A stretch of DNA of 64,000 bases from Acidobacteriota bacterium (GCA_028875575.1 JAPPDF010000052.1:2554-66553); one strand, 5' to 3'; counted from the stretch's first letter, positions 1,922-61,226 are shown. Made by a program: numbers and translations. The notes: generated by a model not told the origin, from the sequence alone.

Positions 1922-4726
1922 CTACTTCTTGGCAGCCGCGGCGAAGTCTCCTGCCTTGACGATGGTCATCTTGTCCAGGTCCAGGTGGCGTCCGAGGGCG
2001 GATAGGATCTGGTCCGCGGTGAGAGCATCGATCTTCCGCTCGAAGTCCTCGTCCCAGGCCAGCGTTCGACCCTGAAAAAGGCGACTGGCCATGGTGCCGG
2101 CCAGGCGGTTGTCCTGAGATCGGCTCACCTGGCGGGACTGCAGGTACCCCGACTTGGCTGCCGCAATTTCCTTGGCGGTGAACCCGTCGGTGAGCGCCCG
2201 CTCAACCTCCTCCCGGAAGGCCGCTTCCACTCTTTCGATATTTTGCGGCGCCGCAATCGCCCAGGTGCTGAAGGCACCGTGCTCGTCCTTGGCTCGCGCT
2301 TCCAGATAGGCTCGAACCCCGTAGCTGAGCCCCTCTTTCTGGCGAATGCGCACCGCCAGGCGAGAGTTGAGAAATCCGCCGCCCAGCATGTAGTTGCCCA
2401 ACACCAGCGCCGGGTAGTCGGGGTGGCTGTCGCTGACAGCCAGGGGCATTCCGGCGATGAAGACTGCGTTGGCCTTGTCGGGCGTCTCTACCGAACGGTT
2501 GGCCGGGGCGATTTCCTGATAGGGGTTTTCAACTCTCTGGTAAGCACCGGGGCTGCTCCAATCGGGAAAGATCTCCTTCAGGACCTCAACGATGCTGTCG
2601 GTTTCGAAGTCCCCCGATATGGCCACTTCTCCGTCTGAGGCGCCGTAGAAGTCCCGGTGGAATCCTTTCACCTCCTCCAGAGTTGCAGACTTGATGGAGT
2701 CAATTCGCTCGTCAAAGGTGGGCGAATAGTTGACATGCCCCTTGGGATAAGTATTGCCGTGGCGCGCAAAGGTGCTCGCGGCAATCGCTTGGGGATTGCT
2801 CATCTGCTGCTCTATGGCGGCCAGTCGTTCCTCCTTGAGCGTGTTGAACTCCCCTTCCGGAAAGGAAGCCTGGCGAAACACTTCCCCGACCAGCCGCAGG
2901 ACTTCGGGAAGATTCTCCTTGACAGTCTCCATCGATGCGGAGGCGCCGGTCGCGCCTCCCGAGACGCGGCCTGTCGCCTTGAGCCGATCCAGTGCATCCT
3001 GGATCTCCTGCCTGGTGCGCCCCGCCGTGCCTCGCATGAGCATCGATCCGGTCAATCCCGCGATGATGTTCTTATGCATCAGGCTCTTCTCGTTGCCGAA
3101 ATGAAGTCTTATGTTGGCGACGACCGTGCTCCCGCGCGTTTTCTTGGGAAGCAGCGCCAGTTTCAGGTTGGATCCGATCGACAGTCGTTGCACTCGAGAC
3201 TCGATGTTACCGGGTGACGGATCGAATGCCTCACCCGCGGCGACGGCGGCGTCCCCCTTGTAGTCCTTGAGCATGGCTGCGACGTCGGGGCGTTGGGGGA
3301 TTTCGGCCCTGTCCGGATCCTCGGTGGGGACGAATTGCCCCAGGGTTCGGTTGGATGACTTCAGATAAGTGGACGCCGCCCGGTGCACATCTTCAGGCGT
3401 CACTTTTCTGATGCGGTCCCGATGGAGGAAGAAAAGGCGCCAGTCACCCATGGCTACCCATTCACTCAGGCTCAAACCCACTCGATTCACGTCGTTGAGA
3501 GCCAGATCGATGTTCTTCAGCAGTTGCGTCCGCGCCCGCTCGACCTCCTCAGCCTTGGGCGGTTCCCGCCGGATGTCCTCGACCGTGCTCAGGTAGGCCT
3601 GCCGGGCCTGCTCCAGCGAATCCTGCTGGCGCACTTCGGCGCCCAACAGCACAACTCCCGGGTCGTGTAATTGAAAGTTGAAGCCGTAGACTCGGCTGGC
3701 CTTCTTGGTTTCGACCAGTGTCTTGTGCAAACGCCCCGAGGGTGTATCGGAGAGGATATGGGTCAGGAGATCCAGGGCGGCAAAGTCGGGGTGGGATCCC
3801 GCTGGAATGTGGTAGGCGGCCATCAGCAACTGCACGTCGCCCACCCGACGCAGCGTTACCGTGCGTTCGCCATCCTGGGTGGGCTCGGAGGTATAGGGTT
3901 TCTGCAGTCGTCGGGTCGGGCGGGGAATGGGACCGAATTTCTTGGCAATCAAGGCCAGGGTGCTGGCGACCTCGAACTTTCCGGCCACCAGCAGGACGGC
4001 ATTATCGGGCTGGTAGTACTTGCGATAGAAAGCCTTCAAGCGGTCAATGGAGACGTTTTCGATGTCGGAGCGGGCGCCGATAGTGGACTTGCCGTAGTTG
4101 TGCCAGAGAAAAGCAGAGGCCAGCGTGCGCTGCATCAGGATGCGGACCGGATTGTTTTCCCCGCGCTCAAACTCGTTGCGGACCACCGTCATTTCGCTGT
4201 CCAGGTCCTTCTTGGCGATGAAGGAATTGATCATGCGGTCGGCTTCCAGATCCAGTGCCCAATCCAGATTTTTGTCGGTAGCTCTGAAGGTTTCGAAATA
4301 GTTGGTCCGGTCGAACCAGGTAGTGCCGTTGGGGCGGGCTCCATGCTCGGTCAGTTCCTGCGGGATGTTGGGGTGCCGCGGAGTGCCCTTGAAGACCAGG
4401 TGCTCCAGCAGGTGGGCCATCCCGGTCTCACCGTAACTCTCGTGCAGGGATCCCACCAGGTAGGTGATATTCACGGTAATGGTGGGCTTGGAGGGGTCGG
4501 GAAAGAGCAGAATCCGAAGCCCATTGTCCAGGCGGTATTCGGTGATTCCTTCGACCGAAGTCACCCGCTCCATTCCTTCCGGCAGGCTGGAGTCTTGCGG
4601 CCGCACGGGAACCGGCGCCGCGGCAGCGGTGGACCCCGTCCACAAAACCAGGGCGAACAAGACCACGCCCGCCAAAATCATGGCAAGGGGTCTGGAAGAG
4701 AGGGAGATTGTTCTGGGAGACTGCAT
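1922..4726 (-). CDS. M16 family zinc peptidase (insulinase/PqqL-like, two-half single chain) with N-terminal signal peptide
   Basis: Inverted zinc motif HLLEHLVFKGT (HxxEH) in the first half and a second inactive M16 half, about 930 aa. ATG 4726 is preceded by GAGGA 8 nt upstream. Hydrophobic signal MILAGVVLFALVLWTGSTAAAA. Confidence 0.85.
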   Translation of the reverse strand: MQSPRTISLSSRPLAMILAGVVLFALVLWTGSTAAAAPVPVRPQDSSLPEGMERVTSVEGITEYRLDNGLRILLFPDPSKPTITVNITYLVGSLHESYGETGMAHLLEHLVFKGTPRHPNIPQELTEHGARPNGTTWFDRTNYFETFRATDKNLDWALDLEADRMINSFIAKKDLDSEMTVVRNEFERGENNPVRILMQRTLASAFLWHNYGKSTIGARSDIENVSIDRLKAFYRKYYQPDNAVLLVAGKFEVASTLALIAKKFGPIPRPTRRLQKPYTSEPTQDGERTVTLRRVGDVQLLMAAYHIPAGSHPDFAALDLLTHILSDTPSGRLHKTLVETKKASRVYGFNFQLHDPGVVLLGAEVRQQDSLEQARQAYLSTVEDIRREPPKAEEVERARTQLLKNIDLALNDVNRVGLSLSEWVAMGDWRLFFLHRDRIRKVTPEDVHRAASTYLKSSNRTLGQFVPTEDPDRAEIPQRPDVAAMLKDYKGDAAVAAGEAFDPSPGNIESRVQRLSIGSNLKLALLPKKTRGSTVVANIRLHFGNEKSLMHKNIIAGLTGSMLMRGTAGRTRQEIQDALDRLKATGRVSGGATGASASMETVKENLPEVLRLVGEVFRQASFPEGEFNTLKEERLAAIEQQMSNPQAIAASTFARHGNTYPKGHVNYSPTFDERIDSIKSATLEEVKGFHRDFYGASDGEVAISGDFETDSIVEVLKEIFPDWSSPGAYQRVENPYQEIAPANRSVETPDKANAVFIAGMPLAVSDSHPDYPALVLGNYMLGGGFLNSRLAVRIRQKEGLSYGVRAYLEARAKDEHGAFSTWAIAAPQNIERVEAAFREEVERALTDGFTAKEIAAAKSGYLQSRQVSRSQDNRLAGTMASRLFQGRTLAWDEDFERKIDALTADQILSALGRHLDLDKMTIVKAGDFAAAAKK

Positions 4727-5999: not shown

Positions 6000-7241
6000 A
6001 TGTTGACCGTCAAGGCCGCCAGGGGAATCGTTCTGGACCATTGCGGCTCCATCCGGCCCGGCCGGTTGTCCACGGAAGTGGTGTCGTTGCCGGCCTCACA
6101 AGGTCGGGTCCTGGCCGAGCCGGTACACCTCGACACAGACCAGCCGCCGTTCGATCGCAGCATGCGAGACGGATATGCCGTCAAGTCCCGGGATCTCGAT
6201 CCGCTGCCGGCCCGGCTCCGATGTGTGGGTGAGATTAAGGCGGGGGAGGTCCCGACCCGGGTTCTGAAATCGGGAGAGGCCATTCAAATCATGACAGGGG
6301 CGCCGGCGCCCAAGGGCGCAGACGCCGTCGTCATGGTCGAGCATACGGAAAGCCTGCCCAAGGATGAAGTGGCTGTGCTTCGATCGGTTCCTTCGGGAGC
6401 CAACATCGCCCCCAGAGGTTCGGAACGCAGGTGCGGCGAACTCCTGATGCCGCCCGCCACCCGCCTGGGTGTTCTGGAGGTGGGAGGCCTGGCCGCGGTA
6501 GGAAAGGCACGGGTTCAGGTTTTTGGGCGTCCGGAGGTCAGCATTTTGGCCACCGGGGACGAACTGGTCGACGTCGATCAGGAACCCGGTCCGGGGCAGA
6601 TCCGCAACTCCAATGCCTATTCTCTATCCGCCCAGGTGGTGAGTCATGGTGGCGTGCCCCGAGTCTTGGCCACAGCCGGAGACACCATGGAACAGCTCAG
6701 GCGGCAAATTCGCCTGGGTCTGGAGAGCGATGTTCTGCTGGTGAGCGGTGGCGTTTCGGCAGGGAAATACGATCTGGTCGAGGAGGTCTTCGAGGAACTC
6801 GGTATTCAAATCCTGTTCGAAGCGGTGAGCATGCGACCCGGAAAACCCACGGTTTTTGCGAGGCGCGAGCAGCAATTCGTTTTCGGTCTTCCCGGCAATC
6901 CCGTGTCGACTTTTGTGGCCTTCGAGCTTTTTGTGTCTCCCGTGCTAAAGGTCCTGCAGGGGTTGCCGGCCGGAGCCCTGAATATGGTGAGGGGGCGGGT
7001 TCAGGAAAAAATTCTGGAGAAATCAGGACGCACGGCTTTGCTGCCGGCAACCGTTACCCTCGACTCCGGCCGCATCTGCATACGACCCGTGTCCTGGAAG
7101 GGATCGGCGGACATCTTCAGCCTGGCGGAGGCCAACGGACTGGTGGTGGTTCCCTTGGAGTGCAGGGAACTGCTTCCCGGCCAGGAGGCTGACGCGCTGC
7201 TGTTCGAGCCCATGAGAGGACTGTCCGGTTGTGAATTTTGA
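6000..7241 (+). CDS. moeA: Molybdopterin molybdenumtransferase MoeA
   Basis: Motifs SMRDGYAV, GDELV and GGVSAGKYD, 413 aa. GGAG upstream of the ATG. Confidence 0.9.
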   Translation: MLTVKAARGIVLDHCGSIRPGRLSTEVVSLPASQGRVLAEPVHLDTDQPPFDRSMRDGYAVKSRDLDPLPARLRCVGEIKAGEVPTRVLKSGEAIQIMTGAPAPKGADAVVMVEHTESLPKDEVAVLRSVPSGANIAPRGSERRCGELLMPPATRLGVLEVGGLAAVGKARVQVFGRPEVSILATGDELVDVDQEPGPGQIRNSNAYSLSAQVVSHGGVPRVLATAGDTMEQLRRQIRLGLESDVLLVSGGVSAGKYDLVEEVFEELGIQILFEAVSMRPGKPTVFARREQQFVFGLPGNPVSTFVAFELFVSPVLKVLQGLPAGALNMVRGRVQEKILEKSGRTALLPATVTLDSGRICIRPVSWKGSADIFSLAEANGLVVVPLECRELLPGQEADALLFEPMRGLSGCEF

Positions 7242-7288
7242 AGCGCGGACCCTGTGATTTTCTTCTTGACGTGGGGAGGAGTTACAGC

Positions 7289-9273: not shown

Positions 9274-9885
9274 ATGGAACCCTTTGAGAAAGTTCACGGA
9301 GTGGTGGCGCCGCTGGATCTACCCAACGTGGATACAGACCAGATCATTCCCAAACAGTTCCTCAAACGGATCGAACGGACCGGCTTCGGCCAGTTCCTTT
9401 TCTACGACTGGCGCTTTCTGGAAGGGAAGACCCTCAATCCTGAATTTGAGTTGAATCAGGAACGCTATCGGGGGGCACGCATCCTGGTCGCCCGAGCCAA
9501 CTTCGGGTGCGGCTCCTCTCGGGAACATGCCCCTTGGTCCCTTCTGGACTACGGCTTCCGTTGTGTCATCGCTCCCTCGTTTGCGGACATCTTCTTCAAC
9601 AACTGCTTCAAGAACGGTCTGCTCCCGGTGCGGCTCTCCGAGGAGCAGGTGGAAGCCATTTTTCAGCGCGTTCGAGGGACCGCTGGCTTTCGGATGACGG
9701 TTGACCTGCAGAAGCAGCAGATTCATGCCGAAGGCGGGATGAGCTACAGCTTCCAGGTCGATCCCTTTCGGCGCCGTTGCCTCCTCAACGGTTGGGACGA
9801 TATCGGCCTCAGCCTGCGGCATGAAGACCTGATCTCACAGTTCGAATCCCGAAACGCCCCGCCTCTGAACCACCCGTCGGTCTGA
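9274..9885 (+). CDS. leuD: 3-isopropylmalate dehydratase small subunit
   Basis: LeuD family, 203 aa, immediately after leuC. Confidence 0.95.
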
Positions 9886-10094
9886 GCCTGAGCGGCCGGT
9901 TGTTTCAAGCCGCGTCGCACGGGCAGTAGACGAGCCTTGCCGCCCAACCGCATCGGGCTTCGCCATCCGGCTCGGCTTCTGCGACTCCCCCTCAAGGGGA
10001 GAGTGATAGCTGGGGTTCTTGAAGGATGTTATGCGAATATGGAGGGCAGACGCTCGAAGATAATCAGTTGAAAAATCCTATCCGCCGGCAGTTT

Positions 10095-10289
10095 TGTGGG
10101 TTAAGGGGGAGCTGCGAAGCTGCGGCTGGCGTGGGTTACCCGGCGAGACGTCTCCTGCAAGCCATCCTTGTAGAGCTGCAACGCAGCGGCTTCGTGTAGC
10201 CCCGGACGGCAGCCCGGGGTCGTTGGAATTCCGCGCAAACCTAGCCGCGAATGCGGCGCATTTAGAGCTGCGTTTCCGAACCCACAGCC
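10095..10289 (+). repeat. Intergenic repeat element R2, copy A (candidate structured ncRNA)
   Basis: About 195 bp, about 70% identical to 32666-32859. Terminal 8-bp complementary ends TGTGGGTT/AACCCACA and several internal hairpins conserved with compensatory changes. Confidence 0.5.
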
Positions 10290-10336
10290 ACCCAACGTAC
10301 AGAGAGCGGGGAGCCGGATTCAACTGAGACGGGACA

Positions 10337-11227
10337 CTAATGCTTGGGAGACAGGAAGGAATCGAACTGCTTGGTCAGGCCGAACACGATACCCGACTTG
10401 GGGGAGTGGTGTGCCAGCCCGGCCACGGCGGCGACGTCCCAACGCAAACCACCGGCGTGGATCTGGAGTCCCATGCGAAACTGAGAGAGGCTCTCGGTTC
10501 CCAGAGGCGCTTGGTGGCGGCTGTTGCGGTGGCCGAATACCTCACCGGCGAGATTGACCTTGGAGGTAAGGGGGTAGATCCCGGCCAGCCCATAGAGCAT
10601 GACGTCGTTTTGAACTCCCGCCAGTACGGGGTTGGCCAGGATCCCCAATCCCAGATTGCCGAAGACATGGAGTTCACCGAAGTGCTTCCCCACCAGAATG
10701 CCGCCGCGATATTGGGTGGCGTTCAAGCCGAGGCCCTTGGCGGTGGATGCATTGGGCACCTGAACCGAAGTGAAGAAGCCAAAAGAAGGTTTGGGGCCGC
10801 CTTCGCGCAACATGCGTATCTTGGTGGAAAGGAAGAGATCGCCGTAGTCGCTGGTTGCGGTCCCGCCGGAACTCAAATGGGGCCTCACCGGGGCGGGCGT
10901 GGATTCGGTAACCGAGAGAAGGTTGTGCGCAGTCCAGTCCATCTGTACTTCCGCCACCCCGGCCAGGCTGATATGAAGGCCCATGACTCCCAGACCGGTC
11001 TGATCCCCTCGTAGTCCCGAGACCGGAAATTTGGCGTCCTGCAGGAAATCGAACCCGAACTCCACCGAGGCGCGACCCGATTTCAAGATGGTGGGGTCTT
11101 CGGTTTGCAAGGGACGCTGTTGTGCGTCCGCATAAAGGGAACACACCGCAAAAGCCAGCACTAGAGTGGAAAGCCTCTGGAGGCTGCGAACGATCGGGCG
11201 GACTGGCGTGCAATGAGATGGATTCAA
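10337..11227 (-). CDS. Outer-membrane beta-barrel protein (putative transporter/porin-like) with signal peptide
   Basis: Alternating-polarity beta-strand composition ending in an aromatic residue. Signal-like n/h region with AxA cleavage (ADA|QQ). Start set to TTG 11227 (MNPSHCTPVRPIVRSLQRLSTLVLAFAVCSLYADA). The annotated ATG 11284 lies inside a repeated 32-bp element and is probably fortuitous. Confidence 0.5.
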   Translation of the reverse strand: MNPSHCTPVRPIVRSLQRLSTLVLAFAVCSLYADAQQRPLQTEDPTILKSGRASVEFGFDFLQDAKFPVSGLRGDQTGLGVMGLHISLAGVAEVQMDWTAHNLLSVTESTPAPVRPHLSSGGTATSDYGDLFLSTKIRMLREGGPKPSFGFFTSVQVPNASTAKGLGLNATQYRGGILVGKHFGELHVFGNLGLGILANPVLAGVQNDVMLYGLAGIYPLTSKVNLAGEVFGHRNSRHQAPLGTESLSQFRMGLQIHAGGLRWDVAAVAGLAHHSPKSGIVFGLTKQFDSFLSPKH

Positions 11228-11252
11228 TCCTCCGAAGTGAGATTTCGGGGGG

Positions 11253-11284
11253 CTGGTGTTCTGTCTCAGAAATAGGGTTGCCAT
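11253..11284 (-). repeat. 32-bp repeat unit (copy i), minus-strand reading ATGGCAACCCTATTTCTGAGACAGAACACCAG
   Basis: One of three near-identical copies in the rsmE-OMP intergenic region. Confidence 0.6.
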
Positions 11285-11323
11285 TTTTCGGCGCGAAGCG
11301 GGGCTGGATGCTCGGAGCGGATA

Positions 11324-11355: not shown

Positions 11356-11564
11356 CTCCGATGGAGGTTCCACCGGGAAACGGTCGTAGGAAAGGTCCGT
11401 TGCGTTTCAGAGAACCGCCACCGTTGTGCTCCCCCGCCCTGGAACCTCCATCGGCCCTCCGGGTTCGGGCGGAACAGCGCCGTCGTCGTCGTCGCTCCTC
11501 CTCACAATGAGTGGGCATTGCATCGTCGTCGCTCCTAGAATGCGGCGCTGTTGCGCTCCGAAAT

Positions 11565-11596
11565 ATGGCAACCCTATTTCTGAGACAGAACACTAG
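11565..11596 (+). repeat. 32-bp repeat unit (copy iii, inverted relative to i and ii: ATGGCAACCCTATTTCTGAGACAGAACACTAG)
   Basis: 31/32 identical to copy i but on the opposite strand. It creates the spurious plus-strand ORF 11511-12104 that runs antisense to rsmE. Confidence 0.6.
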
Positions 11597-11618
11597 TCCA
11601 AGGCCGGTGCGGAAGCAA

Positions 11619-13442: not shown

Positions 13443-14558
13443 TCAACCCAGAATGTCCTTGACCCTGTCGAACAACCCCCGCTCCAGGGGCTTGTTCTCC
13501 ACCGGTGTCAGTTTCGCCAACTGCTCCAACAAGCGGCGTTGGTCCCGATTGAGCTTTCTGGGAGTCACCACGTTGACGGAGACGAATTCGTCTCCACGGC
13601 CGCGGCCGTTGACACCGGGGATGCCTTTGCCTCTCAATCGAAAGACCTTGCCACTTTGAGTGCCTGGCGGGATCGACAGGGTTTCCTCTCCTTCCAGGGT
13701 AGGGACCTTGATGGTCGCACCCAAAGCCGCCTGGGTGAAACTGATGGGAATCCTGCAGTGAATGTCGTTCTCCTGGCGCTCGAAGACTTCATGGTCTCCC
13801 ACTCTCAAGACCACGTAGAGGTCTCCCGGCGGTCCACCCTGGAGACCTCCCTCACCCTCCCCGGAATACCTCACCCTGGAACCGCTGTCGACTCCGGCCG
13901 GAATCGTCACCTGGAGGAAGCGCTCCCGGCGAAGGCGACCCTCTCCGCGGCAATCGACGCAACGATCCTTGACCAGTCGTCCCGATCCCTGGCACTGGTG
14001 GCAGGGGCGGCTGATAGTGAAAAACCCTTGCTGGTAACGCATCTGGCCCTGCCCGTGGCAGGTGGGGCAGCTGGTGGCCGTAGCCCCGGGCGAGATACCG
14101 GAACCTTGACAGGGCTCGCATGACTCCATGCGGGGCACCTTGATCCGGGTCTTCATTCCAAAGGCCGCGTCCATGAAGTCGATCTGCAGGTCGTAACGGA
14201 GGTCGGCTCCCCTGCGCGCGGAAGATTGGCGGCGGGACGCTGATCCGAACAGGTCGCCAAAGCCGAAAAAGTCGCCAAAAATGTCTCCGAATTCCGAAAA
14301 AATGGTCGGGTCGAAGCCGGCTCCCCCGCTCCCGCCGACCGAACTGTGGCCGAAACGGTCATATTGAGCCCGCTTTTGGGGATCGCCCAGAACGCTATAG
14401 GCTTCGGCAGCTTCCTTGAATTTTTCTTCGGCGGATCGGTCCCCGGGGTTCTTGTCGGGGTGGTACTTGACGGCGTGCCTGCGGTAAGCGCTCTTGATCT
14501 CCTGGTCGGAGGCCGATTTGGAAACACCGAGGACTTCGTAGTAATCGCGCTTGCTCAA
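13443..14558 (-). CDS. dnaJ: Molecular chaperone DnaJ
   Basis: J-domain (YYEVLGV…HPDKN), G/F region, four CxxCxGxG zinc repeats and a C-terminal domain. TTG start with GGGAGA SD 9 nt upstream. Confidence 0.95.
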   Translation of the reverse strand: MSKRDYYEVLGVSKSASDQEIKSAYRRHAVKYHPDKNPGDRSAEEKFKEAAEAYSVLGDPQKRAQYDRFGHSSVGGSGGAGFDPTIFSEFGDIFGDFFGFGDLFGSASRRQSSARRGADLRYDLQIDFMDAAFGMKTRIKVPRMESCEPCQGSGISPGATATSCPTCHGQGQMRYQQGFFTISRPCHQCQGSGRLVKDRCVDCRGEGRLRRERFLQVTIPAGVDSGSRVRYSGEGEGGLQGGPPGDLYVVLRVGDHEVFERQENDIHCRIPISFTQAALGATIKVPTLEGEETLSIPPGTQSGKVFRLRGKGIPGVNGRGRGDEFVSVNVVTPRKLNRDQRRLLEQLAKLTPVENKPLERGLFDRVKDILG

Positions 14559-18251: not shown

Positions 18252-18328
18252 GGCGTGTCTTCTTTCAACTCTCGTCTGACGTTAGCGCGAAAAATCCGCG
18301 GCTCGCGGAGCAACCAGACCGGGCACGA

Positions 18329-18574
18329 GCCCGCATTTCTCACCAGGGGGCATGATCATGGCGCAGGAATTTTCCCTTCAGCGCGTGCTCGCGACCGAAG
18401 AGCGTAGCGGTCACTACGGTCGAGGGAGCCTGTGCGCGCTGAATGGAAAAGGACCAGTCAGGGCATGCCCAGCGCCGTCTGTTACCTGCAAGCCCTTACC
18501 ATGGAGCCAATCAAGGTACTGAAAGATAAACTGCCTTTCGTCATGCTACCAGCGACCTGGTGAGAAATGCGGGC
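18329..18574 (+). mobile_element. MITE-like element, copy 1 (246 bp, about 20-bp terminal inverted repeats GCCCGCATTTCTCACCAGG / CCTGGTGAGAAATGCGGGC)
   Basis: Perfect terminal inverted repeats, internal nested palindromes, no coding capacity. Flanked by GA…TA. The right flank CTA on the plus strand is the TAG stop codon of degP on the minus strand. Confidence 0.7.
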
Positions 18575-20136
18575 TAGGGCACCGACCCCGTCAGGAAGAG
18601 CGTGGTAATTTCTCCCGCTTCGCGGTCCCAGCGCTTCACCAGGAATAAAAGGTTCATGCCGGACTGCAGGTCGGAGGTGAGTTCCTGCAGGTCACCGACG
18701 GTGCGGGTCGGCTTCTTGTTGATCTCCATGATCAGGTCGTGGGGTCTGATCCGGGCCTCCTCGGCAATGCTGTCGGGTTCGACCCTCATGACGTAGACTC
18801 CGCTCTCCTCATCCGACAAATTGAATTGCCGGGCCAGTCGGGGAGTGAGGTTCTGTGCGGAAATTCCCAGGCGGACCGATTCGGAAGGTCCCTCCTCTGC
18901 AGGAGCAGCGCCGCGGGAAACCGAAGGAAGGTCCTCTCGATCCATGGCCGTCAGTTGGGTGGTCCTGAGCCGGCCGTCCCGAATGTACTTGATGGTGATC
19001 CTGGTTCCCGGGGCCACGGCGGAGAGCACTCGATGCATATCGTAGGTGTCATTGATCTTGTTCCCGTCCACCTCCACGATCACGTCGCCCTGCTCGAGCC
19101 CGGCCTTGGCGGCGGGACCGTCAGCCGGGTCGGCCCTTTCCACAATCACTCCCTTGCCGTCGGCTGCACCCAAGGCCTTGAGTGTTTGAGCGGTAGCCTC
19201 CCCCTGCATCCGAATTCCTATGGCCCCGCGCCGAACCTTGCCATGTTCGATGAGCTGGTTATAGACGTTGGTGGCCAGGTTGGAGGGAAGAGCGAATCCG
19301 ATACCGAGATTTCCCCCCATTCCCCCAAAAGTGTTTTGGGTCAAAATGGCGGTGTTGACGCCGATGACCTCTCCGGCCATGTTGACCAGGGGGCCTCCGC
19401 TGTTGCCCCGGTTGATGGCGGCATCGGTTTGCAAGAACTGTTGCCAGGGCGTGGCATCTCCCATGTTCTTGCGACCGGTGGCGCTGATGATGCCGGCGGT
19501 GACCGTCTGCTCCAGACCAAAGGGGCTGCCCACCGCCAGTACCCAGTCGCCCTGACGCATCCCGTCCGAATCGCCCAACCTGGCAGCGGTGAGCTTGTCT
19601 TCGGCTTCTACCCGGATTACGGCCAGGTCGGTATTGACATCCTTGCCCACCACCTTGGCCTCGTACTCGTCTCCGGTGGACAGCTTGACGGTGATGGTGT
19701 CGGCATTTTCAACCACGTGGGCGTTGGTGAGAATATATCCCTTGGCATCCACCACGAAGCCCGATCCGAGGGACTGGCTCCTACGACTCCGGCGGGGCAT
19801 TTCCGGACCGAAGAAGCGTTCGAAAAAGTCCTGGAACGGGTCGTTGCGGTACTGCCGGCGGGGGGAAGACTGCCGCCTGACGATGGTTTCAGTGCTGATA
19901 TTGACTACCGCGTTCTCGACTTTTTGAGCCACTGTTGAAAAGTGCGACGACAGCTTGGTGGGAGAAGGCACGCTGATGGGCGCGGGCGTGGAGGCCGCCG
20001 ACCTGGCGGCGCTCACGGAATGGTCGATCATGGTGCCGATGGCCACCCCCAGGATGAGGGTTCCCAGAATCATCGAGAAGAAAAGAAGTCTGCGCCTCCT
20101 CATGGCTCTCAATATCCTTTCGACGGAAGCGATCAT
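18574..20136 (-). CDS. degP: Periplasmic serine endoprotease DegP/HtrA (Do family, trypsin domain plus two PDZ domains)
   Basis: Catalytic-triad context (TNAHVV, DLAV, GNSGGPL) and two PDZ domains. ATG 20136 with AAGGTG upstream; a GTG at 20142 is an alternative start. Confidence 0.9.
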   Translation of the reverse strand: MIASVERILRAMRRRRLLFFSMILGTLILGVAIGTMIDHSVSAARSAASTPAPISVPSPTKLSSHFSTVAQKVENAVVNISTETIVRRQSSPRRQYRNDPFQDFFERFFGPEMPRRSRRSQSLGSGFVVDAKGYILTNAHVVENADTITVKLSTGDEYEAKVVGKDVNTDLAVIRVEAEDKLTAARLGDSDGMRQGDWVLAVGSPFGLEQTVTAGIISATGRKNMGDATPWQQFLQTDAAINRGNSGGPLVNMAGEVIGVNTAILTQNTFGGMGGNLGIGFALPSNLATNVYNQLIEHGKVRRGAIGIRMQGEATAQTLKALGAADGKGVIVERADPADGPAAKAGLEQGDVIVEVDGNKINDTYDMHRVLSAVAPGTRITIKYIRDGRLRTTQLTAMDREDLPSVSRGAAPAEEGPSESVRLGISAQNLTPRLARQFNLSDEESGVYVMRVEPDSIAEEARIRPHDLIMEINKKPTRTVGDLQELTSDLQSGMNLLFLVKRWDREAGEITTLFLTGSVP

Positions 20137-31632: not shown

Positions 31633-32502
31633 CTAGTAAAGAGTTCGGGCCAAGCGTCCCCTGAACTCCTCGGCCAGGTCGCTTCTTTCCCCAATCAGGC
31701 TGAAAACGGCCAGCATGGCCTTGCGGGCGGAGTCCTCCCGGTAATGCTTGTCCCGGGCGACCACGGCCAGAAACTCCTCCAGCGCTTCCCGATATTGTCC
31801 GGTCGCCGCCAGGCAGGAGGCCAGGGCCATGCGTGCGCCCAGGTCTTGCGGAGTGCTTTCCAGGATTTTCCTCAGAGAGGCCTGACCGCCCGCCTCCGCG
31901 CAATCCGCCTGGAATCCGATAACCTGTTCCAGCCGGTCGGCGGCTTCCTTTTCGTCGGCCAGAAACGGAATGGCCTTGAGATGGGATCGGGCCTGTTCCG
32001 GCAGGTGCTCCTCAATCAACAGCCTGGCCAGAGCCAGACGGGCCGGCGAGTGTTGTGGTTCGCGGTCGATGACCTGTTCCAGAAGACCTTTGGCCGCCTC
32101 TTTTCTCCCGGCCTCCAATGCAACTCGTGCCTCAGAAAAGAGCTTGTCGACCTCGGTGGGACAGTAGGGTTTGAGAAACCGGCGAATCTCGGCTTCAGGG
32201 ATGGCTCCCGCGAACTGGTCGACCGCTTTCCCCTCCAGGAAAAGGACGACTTGCGGGATGCTGCGGATCTGGAAGGCAAGGGCCAGGTCCGGACTTTCGT
32301 CGGTATTGATCTTGGCCAGCAGGAAGGCTCCAGCGTACTCTACTGCCAGTTTCTCCAGGACCGGACTCAAGCTGTGGCAGGGACCGCACCAGGGAGCCCA
32401 GAAGTCCACCAGCACCGGGGTGGTGCGGGATTTTTCGACCACTTCGGATTCAAACTGGTCCTGCTCGAGGTCAACGACAAATTTTGAAGTGGATGACGCC
32501 AT
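31633..32502 (-). CDS. Thioredoxin-domain cochaperone with TPR repeats (YbbN/CnoX-like)
   Basis: WCGPC thioredoxin active site followed by about 180 aa of TPR-like helical repeats. Confidence 0.8.
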   Translation of the reverse strand: MASSTSKFVVDLEQDQFESEVVEKSRTTPVLVDFWAPWCGPCHSLSPVLEKLAVEYAGAFLLAKINTDESPDLALAFQIRSIPQVVLFLEGKAVDQFAGAIPEAEIRRFLKPYCPTEVDKLFSEARVALEAGRKEAAKGLLEQVIDREPQHSPARLALARLLIEEHLPEQARSHLKAIPFLADEKEAADRLEQVIGFQADCAEAGGQASLRKILESTPQDLGARMALASCLAATGQYREALEEFLAVVARDKHYREDSARKAMLAVFSLIGERSDLAEEFRGRLARTLY

Positions 32503-32665
32503 TTCCAGTCCTCCCGTAAACCCATGTTACCAAACCCTGTCCTGCAACAAGAAACGGATCCACGAACACGATTGTACGACAAAGCTGTGAAGGGAGATCC
32601 GTGGATCAAGTGCCCCCCTACTGGGGCCAGACATTAACCGAAAGAAATTTCCACGCTCAGCAGCA

Positions 32666-32859
32666 TTGTGGGTTAGGGGAGAGCCGCGAAGCTGCGGTTG
32701 GAGTGGGTAGGCAAGGAAACGCTTACTACAAGCCATCCTTATAGAGCTGCGTAGCAGCGGCTCAGGGTAGCCCCGGGCGGCAGCCCGGGGTCGTATGGTT
32801 CTGCTCCAACCCCGCCGCGAAGGCGGCGAATCAAGAGCCGGGTCCCGCAACGCACAGCC
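32666..32859 (+). repeat. Intergenic repeat element R2, copy B (candidate structured ncRNA)
   Basis: Same orientation as copy A (10095-10289). Conserved blocks CAAGCCATCCTT(G/A)TAGAGCTGC and GTAGCCCCGG(A/G)CGGCAGCCCGGGGTCGT. Confidence 0.5.
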
Positions 32860-33110
32860 TCGCCAGAGCGCAGCCCGGGGTTTCCTGATCCCGCGCGCCG
32901 CCCTGGCCGCGTATGCGACGAATCAGGTTCGTCGTGCAGCACCGCAGTGCCCGTCCAATAAAGGCTAAGCATCCACCCATCCAATCGAGCGTTACAAGTG
33001 CCAAGGGGAGAGTTACATGTCGGCCAATTTTTGTTGGTGTCCGCCGTCGGTTGTCTTGGATCGGGAGCGGTGTTAGGATGGAGGGCGAAGCGGGCTAAAA
33101 GAGGTGACCG

Positions 33111-33809
33111 ATGCGCAAGGTGCTGTGGATGGCTTCATTGCTACCGGTTGTTGCCACAATGCACCATCCTGTGGCAGCCCAGGTCAACCTGTCCTTTGAC
33201 GGCAGGGTGGTGAACCTGACGGCGTCGAACGAGAGTTACGGAAGCATCCTGGACCTTCTGGGCCGGCACACGGGAATGGCGGTGGAGATTCCCGGCGAGT
33301 TGAAGTCCGTGCGGGTTCCCCTGCTGGAGATACGAGGGCTGGAAGTCAAGGCAACCGTTCTGAAGATCATGGAAGGGAGTGGTTTTGATTACTTTCTGTT
33401 GACTCGGACGGGTCGTCCCGACACCCTGTCCCGCTTGATCGTATCCGGCAAATCCAAGAAGATCGCGCCACCGGCCCGGCGCAGTCGACCGCCCTCCCGA
33501 TCTCCCCGCAGACCCTTTGTTGGCCGCAATGTGACACCTTTCAACCCACGGACGGGTTCAGGGGCAAGGACTGGCTCCAGGGCGCAGAAGATCAAGCCGG
33601 CGGTGCAGCCCAAGACCACGCCGACCGCCCAGCCCGCCACTGCCTTTCCGGTCGGCCAGCCCTACGGCCAAACCTTGAGCAGCCAACCTCCTGGTATCGG
33701 CCAACCCGCTGCAGCGCAGCCCCGGCAGGTGCGTTCCCCACGGGCCTCCGGGGGACAGACAACCGCGAATCCCAGCCGTCGTGCACCCAACCCATACCAG
33801 CGGAAATAG
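33111..33809 (+). CDS. Secreted hypothetical protein: N-terminal about 110-aa globular domain (STN/secretin-N-like pattern) plus Pro/Arg/Gln-rich low-complexity tail
   Basis: Signal peptide MRKVLWMASLLPVVATMHHPVAA. SD AGAGGTGA. The C-terminal half is compositionally biased. Domain assignment is tentative. Confidence 0.5.
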   Translation: MRKVLWMASLLPVVATMHHPVAAQVNLSFDGRVVNLTASNESYGSILDLLGRHTGMAVEIPGELKSVRVPLLEIRGLEVKATVLKIMEGSGFDYFLLTRTGRPDTLSRLIVSGKSKKIAPPARRSRPPSRSPRRPFVGRNVTPFNPRTGSGARTGSRAQKIKPAVQPKTTPTAQPATAFPVGQPYGQTLSSQPPGIGQPAAAQPRQVRSPRASGGQTTANPSRRAPNPYQRK

Positions 33810-35715: not shown

Positions 35716-35729
35716 GCAGGTAGCTGCTA

Positions 35730-35974
35730 GCCCGCATTTCTCACCAGGGGGCATGATCATGGCGCAGGAATTTCCCCTTCAGCGCGTGCTCGCGACCGAA
35801 GAGCGTAGCGGTTTCTACGGTCGAGGGAGCCTGTGCGCGCTGAAGGGAAAAGGACAAGCCAGGGCATGCCCAGCGCCGTCTGTGATGCGCAAGCCCTTGA
35901 CATTGAGCCAATCAAGGTGCTGAAGATAATCTACTTCTTGTAATGCCTCCAGCGGCCTGGTGAGAAATGCGGGC
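35730..35974 (+). mobile_element. MITE-like element, copy 2
   Basis: About 85% identical to copy 1, same orientation, same terminal inverted repeats. Flanks TA…TC. Track ORFs 35657-35923 (+) and 35503-35760 (-) fall inside it and are rejected. Confidence 0.7.
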
Positions 35975-36053
35975 TCGTCCTGGCATCTGCAGCCAAGACG
36001 CCTGTACGGCCCACGAGAATTCCCTATCCGATCGGCAGTTGGACTGTCGAACT

Positions 36054-45186: not shown

Positions 45187-45322
45187 GAATCGCGGGCTCG
45201 GGTTGGAACCGGAGAGACGGAATCGATCCGTATTCTCACCCCTGGCCCGCGGGGGCGCAGGCACTGGTGTCCCGCACTGCCAACCCGGTGAGAAATATGG
45301 GCTTGTCCCACGGGGTGGACCC

Positions 45323-60067: not shown

Positions 60068-60803
60068 CACCTGGATAGCCGAATGGGTCAACAGCACCTT
60101 GGGTCCGGTGGTGGCGGCTCTGCTCGGCAGTCTCTATGGGCTGTTTGGCTACACATACACTCCCGGGCACATGATCATTCCCGAGCATGTTACCTTTGCC
60201 GTACTGGTGTTTCTCTTCTGCGCGGTGTTTTTCCCCATCGCCGGGCGGTCGTTTTCTCTGGAGAAGCCGGGCAAGATACAACAGATTCTGGAGCTGGTAG
60301 TTGAATTCCTCAACGGGCAGTTGGAGGAGATCATCGGCCATGGGGCCAAAAAGTACCTTCCCATGGTGGCGACCATCGGAATCTTCATTCTGCTGATGAA
60401 CCTTTGCGGACAGATTCCGGGATTTGCCTCTCCGACCAGCAGCATCAACGTGACCGTCGGCTGCGCCCTGGTGGTGTTCCTCTACTACAACTACCTGGGG
60501 ATTCGAAAGCAAGGATTGGTTTCCTATCTCAAGCACTTTGCCGGTCCGGTGCCCCTGATGGCGCCGTTGATGGTTCCGATAGAAATCATCAGCCACTTGG
60601 CCCGACCCTTTTCGCTGTCGGTCCGTCTTTTTGCCAACATCTTCGGAGAGCACCAGGTAGTGGCCGTGTTCTTTGCCCTGGTCCCCTTCATCGTGCCGCT
60701 TCCCATCATGGCGCTGGGAGTGTTTGCCAGTTTTCTGCAGGCTTTCATCTTCATGGTCCTGACCATGATCTATATTGCGGGAGCCGTCTCGGAGGAGCAT
60801 TAA
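60054..60803 (+). CDS. atpB: F0F1 ATP synthase subunit a
   Basis: Subunit a family with conserved Arg in LSVRLFANIFGEH. Stop TAA 60801-60803. Confidence 0.9.
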   Translation: MEHGSTWIAEWVNSTLGPVVAALLGSLYGLFGYTYTPGHMIIPEHVTFAVLVFLFCAVFFPIAGRSFSLEKPGKIQQILELVVEFLNGQLEEIIGHGAKKYLPMVATIGIFILLMNLCGQIPGFASPTSSINVTVGCALVVFLYYNYLGIRKQGLVSYLKHFAGPVPLMAPLMVPIEIISHLARPFSLSVRLFANIFGEHQVVAVFFALVPFIVPLPIMALGVFASFLQAFIFMVLTMIYIAGAVSEEH

Positions 60804-61048
60804 CCCGCATTTCTCACCAGGCCGCTGGTGGCAGGACGAAGGCTAGTTTATCTGTCAGTACCTTGATTGGCTCCATGCAAAGGGCTTGCGGATAACAGAC
60901 GGCGCTGGGCACGCTCTGGCTGGTCTTTTTCCCTCCAGCGCGCACATGCTCCCTCGACCGTAGTGACCGCTACGCTCTTCGCTCGCGAGCACGCGCTTGA
61001 GGGAAAAATCCTGCACCATGATCATGCCCCCTGGTGAGAAATGCGGGT
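60803..61048 (-). mobile_element. MITE-like element, copy 3 (inverted orientation), inserted between atpB and atpE
   Basis: Reverse complement of copies 1 and 2, same terminal inverted repeats, flanked by TA on both sides. The left TA belongs to the atpB TAA stop. Track ORF 60997-61182 inside it is rejected. Confidence 0.7.
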
Positions 61049-61226
61049 TAAGCCTCAGAGGTCACGGCGCCGGCAAGGTCGAATTCGACCGTCCCTGCCA
61101 CTTGTGTGAGCCCGGGATGCACGAGGGGTTCTCGGGAACCACCTCCAAGTGGCGCTTCATTGGTTCCAGCGGAGCTCCTTAAGATCGGGTATCCGCGGCG
61201 AACCCCAACCGAAAGGAGAATCCACC

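Follow-up and report, generated by a model that had tools for sequence, protein, structure and literature searches.

Acido-Lenti-1 as the probable hairpin core of a REP/TIRtron-like repeat associated with a small Y1 transposase: two copies in an Acidobacteriota sequence

A stretch of 64,000 nucleotides from an Acidobacteriota bacterium (GCA_028875575.1 JAPPDF010000052.1:2554-66553), referred to below as the window, holds two related intergenic elements, copy A at 10095-10289 and copy B at 32666-32859. Both are best explained, at a probability of roughly 0.7, as non-autonomous members of a REP/REPIN-like (REPtron or TIRtron-type) hairpin-rich DNA repeat whose conserved core is Acido-Lenti-1, a motif listed in Rfam since 2010 as an orphan 'sRNA' (small RNA) of unknown function. 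The evidence indicates that Acido-Lenti-1 is the hairpin core of a REP/TIRtron-like repeat partnered with a small IS200-related Y1/HUH transposase (YxxxQxxHH), and that members of this repeat occur in Acidobacteriota, Planctomycetota, Verrucomicrobiota, Lentisphaerota and some further phyla. The REP-like DNA reading is drawn from convergent doublets, tandem arrays, insertion polymorphism, the bracketing of Y1 genes and a share of G·U pairs of about 1% in the core stems; an RNA role of the element is a minority possibility for the composite subfamily to which the two copies belong.

The identity of the core was obtained from a whole-window Rfam scan, which gave one match at gathering score, namely RF01687 (Acido-Lenti-1) at 32745-32790 on the minus strand (42.8 bits, gathering score 37). 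The corresponding core of copy A, at 10174-10219, reached 31.8 bits, below the gathering score, with an E-value of 1.9e-5 over the full model (1-46), and five full-length relatives of the copies scored 41-46 bits. Both 46-nt cores align with RF01687 ungapped and from end to end, the minus strand of the window being the Rfam orientation, and both match its layout, in which a hairpin of 8 bp is followed by a 12-nt linker beginning with CUA and then by a hairpin of 5 bp. Rfam returned nothing else at either copy above chance-level matches. A reading made from the window sequence before these searches (the sequence-only reading) had described a two-copy element and a candidate structured non-coding RNA family to be compared with Rfam; that comparison identifies the core as RF01687, a family curated as small RNA.

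When Acido-Lenti-1 was first described in Acidobacteria and Lentisphaerae, it was regarded as a probable non-coding RNA that is sometimes found near group II introns (Weinberg et al., 2010; PMC2864571). The alignment of that study comprises about 89 members; K. versatilis accounts for about 12 of them, which are dispersed, and L. araneosa for about 70, many of which stand in tandem with periods of 74, 110-115 and 192-200 nt (PMC2864571). The elements analyzed here share with RF01687 the two hairpins, the conserved GGCUA linker and the taxa (Acidobacteria, Lentisphaerae and Planctomycetes). They differ from the Rfam entry, which presents a stand-alone small RNA of unknown function on the opposite strand, in that the core is a module of a composite of about 200 nt and that the family as a whole has the behaviour of repeated DNA, with copies on both sides of a Y1 transposase gene.

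A second line of evidence came from a covariance model (R1) that was built from 124 other cores and contained no window sequences. Core matches in the 64 kb were found at two places only, both on the plus strand, with 56.8 bits (E 1e-14) for copy B and 42.0 bits (E 1.8e-10) for copy A. The next-best matches were H2-like hairpins at 10110-10132 and 32682-32704, and a third hairpin, H3, also scored at 10243-10261. This pattern implies that each window copy is a singlet composite, in which a hairpin termed H2* is followed by a variable segment of about 45 nt, by one entire arm (H2-TAG-H1-H3) and by a tail about 30 nt long.

Both copies lie at the coordinates and in the same orientation given in the sequence-only reading, and their similarity was confirmed by alignment and by a random-window control. 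Global alignment of 10095-10289 with 32666-32859 gave 78% identity (157 of 201 columns), which is higher than the 70% or so first estimated, and copy A reached 51.0±1.9% identity (maximum 58%) when compared with 300 random 195-nt windows. The similarity sets in at GCAG (10088 and 32660) and ends at GCC (10289 and 32859), so that the composites occupy 10088-10289 and 32660-32859 on the plus strand. The element is two-copy only within the window and belongs to a large family outside it; full-length relatives of copy A occur at five further loci (L078, L128, L233, L234 and L257), and the copy at L257 is orthologous to copy B.

Read 5' to 3' on the plus strand, copy A consists of an H2-type hairpin, the variable segment, the Acido-Lenti-1 core, H3 and the tail. 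The first hairpin, H2* (10110-10127), reads AGCTGC-GAAGCT-GCGGCT, holds a U·G pair and is the third-best window match of R1 with 11 bits; its counterpart in copy B (32682-32699, plus strand, 10.4 bits) reads AGCCGC-GAAGCT-GCGGTT, so that U·G in A corresponds to C-G in B. H2* of copy A is a degenerate hairpin of the H2/H3 type. The core, as delimited by Rfam and R1, starts in copy A (10174-10219, plus strand) with an A and continues with H2 (10175-10187), a 9-nt linker, TAG (10197-10199) and H1 (10200-10219); in copy B (32745-32790, plus strand) the same parts lie at 32746-32758 (H2), 32768-32770 (TAG) and 32771-32790 (H1). The two H2 hairpins, GCTGC-AAC-GCAGC in A and GCTGC-GTA-GCAGC in B, differ in the loop, and H1 (CCCCGG..CCGGGG) contains one A·C mismatch in A and is a perfect 8-bp stem in B. 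H3 reads GCCGC-GAAT-GCGGC in A (10244-10257, plus strand), with 97% of the cells paired in seven copies, and GCCGC-GAAG-GCGGC in B (32814-32827, plus strand), where it is placed by the alignment of A with B and by the pairing across the same seven copies. It is the counterpart of the family H3 (AGCCCC-GGAG-GGGGCGACAG), which follows most cores about 22 nt on their 3' side.

All local hairpins listed in the sequence-only reading, four in number, are thus present in A and B with pairing-preserving, compensatory changes. Its terminal closing stem did not hold up equally well: TGTGGGTT/AACCCACA is perfect in copy A alone, and copy B reads AACGCACA with one mismatch. Over the seven full-length copies (A, B and the five relatives) the local hairpins are 97-100% paired and the terminal stem is paired in 71% of the cells. 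As a defining feature the 8-bp stem was rejected, as it is not conserved in the five relatives. Double-sided changes among the seven copies comprise T-A to A-T in H2 of three copies and C-G to T-A at the closing pair of H1 in L257. A proposed third copy at 14067-14101 was also discarded, with no covariance-model match at E <=10.

The wider family was delimited by a core pattern search in one genome per species, in which the pattern fixed only unpaired and closing positions; the family description rests on about 240 related loci, and the counts from both large scans are lower bounds. At least 120 loci were found in Acidobacteriota, Planctomycetota, Verrucomicrobiota, Lentisphaerota, Chlamydiae and a few others, and almost all of the pattern matches listed are true family members, several of them sharing one contig or metagenome-assembled genome. 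Viral contigs gave no match to a subfamily pattern. In the orientation of the window plus strand, the arm starts with H2 (AG-NNNN-GNA-NNNN-CG) and a 9-nt linker, commonly G(G/A)CAGANNN, which is followed by TAG, the 8-bp hairpin H1 (CCCNNNNC-GNNA-GNNNNGGG), a spacer of about 22 nt and the H2-like hairpin H3, commonly AGCCCC-GGAG-GGGGCGACAG.

Pairing was counted at the stem positions that the search pattern leaves free. Among about 1,820 stem cells in the 140 unique cores listed, 97.6% are Watson-Crick pairs, 19 are G·U (about 1%) and 6 are A·C, and many compensatory pair types occur at the free positions. The H2 loop, a position unconstrained by the pattern, is GNA in 86% of the 140 cores. TAG precedes H1 in all cores, but it is required by the pattern; the independent alignment of Rfam has CUA or CUG there. 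A G directly before TAG is present in only 53 of the 140 cores.

Cores are mostly extragenic: 15% lie inside open reading frames (ORFs) of at least 300 aa, compared to 70% of random positions. Of the neighbouring core pairs among the loci listed, 21 are convergent, 4 divergent and 5 tandem; the convergent spacing is mostly 130-194 nt, and reversed-sequence controls gave no matches. R1 adds many degenerate partners, so that about one third of the loci listed carry a convergent inverted doublet. Within a doublet, one arm is often distinguished from the other by compensatory changes in the individual hairpins, from which it follows that the local hairpin is conserved rather than arm-to-arm identity. 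Direct tandem arrays of cores, a BIME-like clustering also seen in the L. araneosa contigs mentioned above, were observed with a period of 89 nt in L091 (5908-6228) and of 105 nt in L040 (6-156).

The association with a transposase emerged from ORF clustering over the at least 120 loci, in which the sole cluster lying directly against cores was a protein of about 147 aa. It matches Pfam Y1_Tnp (PF01797; E 1e-22 to 1e-27) and NCBIfam NF033573 (IS200/IS605 transposase; 70-76 bits, cutoff 55), and its closest solved relatives in a PDB sequence search are the IS608-type TnpA proteins, which are distant (E of about 8e-6). The loci listed include four intact Y1 genes and one pseudogene. All four intact genes are bracketed in the order core(+)-H3(+)-ATG...stop-H3(-)-core(-), as in L067, where a plus-strand core at 6662-6707, the gene at 6748-7188 and a minus-strand core at 7232-7277 follow each other. 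A reciprocal search from the protein yielded 2,885 homologues at E <=1e-20, some of them named 'REP-associated tyrosine transposase' (JGI) and some 'IS200/IS605 family transposase' (NCBI). Three further Y1 genes that were found via the protein alone show the same bracket at the same distances, which brings the intact genes bracketed by convergent cores to seven of the seven inspected. RF01687 reaches the gathering score on both flanks of the gene in L062, L067, L056 and L256 and on one flank only in L251 and L255; L103 runs off the contig end. The HxH motif and the Y motif (Y-I-x-x-Q-x-x-H-H, more closely YIxNQxxHH) are invariant in all seven proteins.

In related genomes, then, two convergent arms bracket the 147-aa Y1 gene, and gene-less convergent doublets, singlets and tandem arrays occur elsewhere in intergenic DNA. 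By analogy, the Y1 enzyme would bind the hairpins in single-stranded DNA (ssDNA) of the strand that carries the GNA and GNNA loops and the 5' TAG foot, and would then cut and join beside them, spreading or rearranging the copies. Models for such a mechanism are TnpA of IS200/IS605 (IS608) and TnpA-REP of E. coli. We infer that the Y1 enzyme recognizes TAG-footed hairpins in ssDNA and disperses them. The window copies would each consist of a single entire arm and an additional H2-type hairpin in partial decay, inserted in two unrelated intergenic regions, and any transcript-level effect, for example as a 3'-end stabilizer, would be a by-product. If this reading is true, the Rfam family needs relabelling and annotators would cease to call its copies small RNA genes; there would be a candidate substrate for a Y1 subclass that has been described as having no terminal DNA structures; and REPtron-like systems would reach beyond Proteobacteria, with another enzyme class and a three-hairpin arm. 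For the window itself, both elements would be ordinary mobile-repeat insertions that mark two hypervariable intergenic spots.

Several known mobile systems can be compared with this arrangement. REP/REPIN-RAYT systems, or REPtrons (Nunvar, 2010; Bertels and Rainey, 2011, PMC3116915; Ton-Hoang, 2012), resemble the present family in their GC-rich hairpins outside genes, in the occurrence of clusters, arrays and inverted doublets that measure about 150-200 nt, and in a single small Y1/HUH gene between inverted copies; a 5' foot ending in TAG is also common to both, although in the cores collected here the search pattern itself calls for it. Differences lie in the enzyme, which here is not a class-2 RAYT (YIxNQxxHH instead of Y---NP, and 21-26 bits with NF047646), in the arm, which has three hairpins in about 90 nt compared to the single 20-40-nt palindrome of REP, and in the foot, as the base before TAG is not fixed as G, unlike the REP foot GTAG (or GGAG).

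A parallel in Acidobacteria is provided by the 'TIRYT' genes. Di Nocera et al. (2013; PMC3733652) described acidobacterial Y1 genes flanked by long inverted repeats, which in K. versatilis belong to a repeated family, and a sharply defined acidobacterial TIRYT group from K. versatilis, T. saanensis, A. capsulatum and G. mallensis. Like these TIRtrons, in which the inverted repeats can also form moderately abundant families of singles, dimers and groups, the present family has inverted arms of about 90 nt on either side of the Y1 gene, with further arms of this kind scattered as singlets and doublets. The published shared motif GGGGWSAS is not an exact fit to H3 (GGGGCGAC), and a link between the TIR repeats and Acido-Lenti-1 was not found in the searched passages of that paper. 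To judge from the published description, TIRYT and the present family are probably the same phenomenon.

The motif Y---Q--HH was reported as the signature of TnpA-Y1 subclass 1.2 (Quentin et al., 2018; PMC6006769). The present proteins resemble this subclass in the Y motif, the small size, the closeness to IS200 TnpA and the low copy number, and differ in that their genes are tightly bracketed by hairpin arms and occur in Acidobacteriota and phyla of the Planctomycetes-Verrucomicrobia-Chlamydiae (PVC) group; a putative assignment to subclass 1.2 is made by the motif. Finally, IS200/IS605 elements and PATEs use a Y1/HUH enzyme of the same Pfam family (PF01797, NF033573) and subterminal hairpins as presumed recognition elements. 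Their left- and right-end hairpins are direct and on one strand, in contrast to the inverted arms around the present gene, which also has no tnpB partner. The family is therefore set with systems of the REPtron/TIRtron kind and made a member of neither REP/RAYT nor IS200/IS605, given that the enzyme class does not fit the former and the direct-hairpin layout does not fit the latter.

This layout also bears on whether the composites could be miniature, PATE-like derivatives of IS200/IS605, with H2* as left-end and H3 as right-end hairpin on the same strand, mobilized as ssDNA by an IS200-type TnpA and perhaps retaining a TnpB guide-RNA scaffold. The Y1 proteins do pass the NCBIfam IS200 model, and H2* and H3 are hairpins of the same type and strand, located about 22 and 32 nt from the composite ends. 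Such an origin is nevertheless most improbable: the arms around the Y1 gene are inverted and not direct, no TnpB-like cluster recurs beside the cores in the ORF clustering of the listed loci, and the composite ends are poorly conserved. TnpB/omega-RNA, retron, integron attC, CRISPR-like array, riboswitch and leader were all rejected as explanations, as Y1 is the sole protein that recurs beside the cores of the listed loci, copy A lies at 3' ends and copy B at 5' ends, and the Rfam matches at the two copies include none but Acido-Lenti-1 above chance level.

The genomic positions of the two copies agree with the context given in the sequence-only reading, copy A lying between convergent 3' ends and copy B between divergent 5' ends. 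Copy A is preceded by leuD (9274-9885; Pfam Aconitase_C/LeuD) and faced by the 3' end of a convergent 315-aa ORF (10337-11284), for which no Pfam match is on record, so that the name 'OMP' given to it earlier was not confirmed. The neighbours of copy B are a divergent thioredoxin-TPR gene (31633-32502, minus strand) on one side and, on the other, a 232-aa ORF (33111-33809, plus strand) that is followed by smpB.

Comparison with relatives reveals that the segment holding copy A (9892-10325, between leuD and the 315-aa ORF) is lineage-specific. A relative with a LeuD 88% identical has the same order MoeA-MoaC-LeuC-LeuD, convergent 315-aa ORF, RsmE and PrmA, and the distance from the leuD stop to the stop of the convergent ORF is 9 nt in the syntenic L247 and L248 and 451 nt in the window. 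In six relatives the homology ends at about 9890 and returns at 10326-10336, the spacer consisting of 9 nt, a 419-aa ORF or other sequence, with a core in none of them. At the other locus, L257 (thioredoxin protein 90% identical) carries the orthologous copy B at 79% identity next to a flank at 86%, and the element is absent at the orthologous region of L258 and L259. By these sequence comparisons both window copies are insertion polymorphisms.

Full-length composites beyond the window number at least five, with 73-84% identity. Most other elements with an identical H1 share the core only, which makes the composite a narrow subfamily. In L078, L128, L233 and L234 it lies in unrelated flanks. 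H2* is a perfect Watson-Crick hairpin in L233, L234 and L257, and hence the change from U·G to C-G noted above lies in a decaying copy of H2*. A second module, U (about 9935-10087, plus strand), lies directly 5' of copy A with 80-81% identity to L233 and L234, contains the hairpin CTCCCC-TCAA-GGGGAG and precedes the composite in both of these loci, whereas copy B, L078 and L128 lack it on their 5' side. That copy A is orthologous to the elements of L233 and L234 was dismissed, no homologue of leuD or of the 'OMP' ORF being present on those contigs; module U thus travels with the element, as the common upstream sequence occurs there without leuD. A remnant of a circular permutation or tandem array, with the 5' GUGGGUUA as the 3' half of a minus-strand core, was likewise rejected, since the covariance model gives plus-oriented partial matches (H2* and H3) only.

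Several observations weigh against the REP-like reading. The Y1 protein scores only 21-26 bits with NF047646, the model for REP-associated tyrosine transposases (RAYT), whose cutoff is 80. By tblastn, no Y1 transposase gene is present in the 64-kb window, so that a cognate enzyme in the source genome is only presumed to exist. Each copy in the window is a singlet whose hairpins all lie on one strand, and neither is an inverted doublet. The seven composites contain G·U-rich long-range plus-strand helices, which would be weak in DNA. The insert at locus A, finally, amounts to about 434 nt (9892-10325) and includes module U, which leaves the moved unit at this locus undefined.

The absence of a Y1 gene from the window also suits a decayed relic, or a host-used REP-like spacer without current mobility and without an active transposase in the genome. 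Such a sequence could be neutral filler or could function in 3'-end protection, in termination between convergent genes or as a site for nucleoid proteins. H2* is degenerate, H1 of copy A has its A·C mismatch, and copy B has been kept at the orthologous L257 site at about the neutral rate. Copy A, moreover, lies between convergent 3' ends, a typical REP position; in E. coli, REPs often sit between convergent 3' ends. The cores and H3 are still intact hairpins, however, with a compensatory change between orthologues (the closing pair of H1 is C-G in the window and T-A in L257), and the composite occurs in several unrelated contexts. Copy B between divergent 5' ends is unlike a terminator, so that a terminator role cannot fit both copies. 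The relic explanation is accordingly regarded as improbable, and dispersal as a REP-like repeat is preferred to it.

The remaining question is whether the copies act as RNA. Single-sequence folding gave minimum free energy z-scores of -1.65 and -3.8 for the plus strand and of 0.05 and -2.0 for the minus strand, and the RNAalifold consensus of seven sequences reached -59.6 kcal/mol with 51 pairs on the plus strand and -44.2 kcal/mol with 34 pairs on the minus strand. The gain of the plus strand is due to long-range helices with about 20% G·U cells, which join GGTTGGCGTGGG with CCGCGCCAACC and YACAAGCC with GGCTTCGTG and show several changes from G·U to G-C and three to four double-sided changes. 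A structured non-coding RNA, transcribed from the plus strand over about 200 nt and acting through a multi-helix fold in trans or on neighbouring transcripts, would account for these features, with the REP-like origin as incidental or as the source of an exaptation. The loops can also be quoted in its favour, as GNA (86% of the H2 loops) and GNNA are read on the plus strand. This asymmetry suggests that the plus strand is the one that is 'read', which fits recognition of ssDNA by a Y1 enzyme and RNA equally. The listing of the core as small RNA by Rfam is a further argument for such an RNA, even though Rfam annotates the opposite strand.

The pairing evidence, on the other hand, separates into two parts. 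The local hairpins covary strongly, both in the 140 cores and in the seven full-length copies. For the long-range helices in the seven sequences, 17 of 500 shuffles reached the observed pairing and 19 of 500 the observed covariation, which lies within the stated false-positive range of the tool, and the covariation term of RNAalifold is about zero for the seven-sequence consensus; the long-range covariation is therefore not distinguishable from shuffles. The proposed closing stem is not conserved, and G·U pairs are unusually scarce in the core stems if these belong to a functional RNA. Consensus scans found no sigma-70-like promoter or intrinsic terminator flanking either copy, with the reservation that acidobacterial promoters may differ. 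No single transcribed strand fits the family, as both orientations occur together in doublets and around the Y1 gene. The orthologous copy B is less conserved (79%) than its flank (86%), and only some of the close relatives carry the element.

Taken as a whole, a dedicated structured RNA is unlikely. What stands of the sequence-only proposal is a covarying hairpin family with a core that Rfam lists as small RNA and a plus strand that folds better; a gene of about 200 nt with a closing stem does not. Its proposal that both copies would be transcribed from the plus strand agrees with the better folding of that strand; its argument from a G·U wobble valid only on this strand rests on the degenerate H2*, a perfect Watson-Crick hairpin in L233, L234 and L257, and the Rfam strand is the opposite one.

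It is conceivable, if doubtful, that the composite subfamily as a whole (the two window copies and their five full-length relatives) derives from REP and has been exapted, either as a structured RNA of the plus strand or as structured ssDNA. The G·U-rich long-range helices would then arrange the three hairpins into one fold, whose function would go beyond that of a transposase substrate, for example in regulating the Y1 enzyme or neighbouring genes or in serving them as a cofactor.

Some further features were noted in the window and at the related loci. A possible, tentatively assigned partial second unit follows copy B at 32868-32926 (plus strand); in it, the 3' part (one half) of H1 is separated by a spacer from a hairpin of the H3 type (GGCCGCGTATGCGACGA). 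Its identity to 32772-32830 is about 60%, and a weak R1 match lies at 32834-32879. The junction between leuD and the convergent ORF (9886-10336) is a hot spot of variation among close relatives, as seen in comparison with L244-L249 and L260: it is occupied by 9 nt, by 451 nt of repeats, by a 419-aa ORF or by other content, which includes a PIN-domain pair and an integrase fragment. Near the 5' end of the 315-aa ORF, a 70-nt inverted repeat (11250-11319 and 11530-11599) is 83% complementary, its arms being separated by 210 nt. In L257, three tandem repeats of about 200 nt (1120-1720) lie upstream of the thioredoxin gene and beside the orthologous copy B; the 250-aa ORF called across them has no Pfam match. 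In L014 (about 3200-3260) and L112 (about 2870-2940), cores are accompanied on their 3' side by a further GC-rich palindromic repeat that is likewise common (CCCTCTCCC...GGGAGAGGG type), which suggests that different repeat families pile up at the same intergenic spots. The window itself also carries an unrelated, MITE-like repeat family of about 260 nt at 18323-18585, 35724-35985, 60794-61076 (inverted) and, in part, 45284-45313. It gave no Rfam match at gathering score; its copies are 89-93% identical and end in 18-nt terminal inverted repeats (CCCGCATTTCTCACCAGG / CCTGGTGAGAAATGCGGG).

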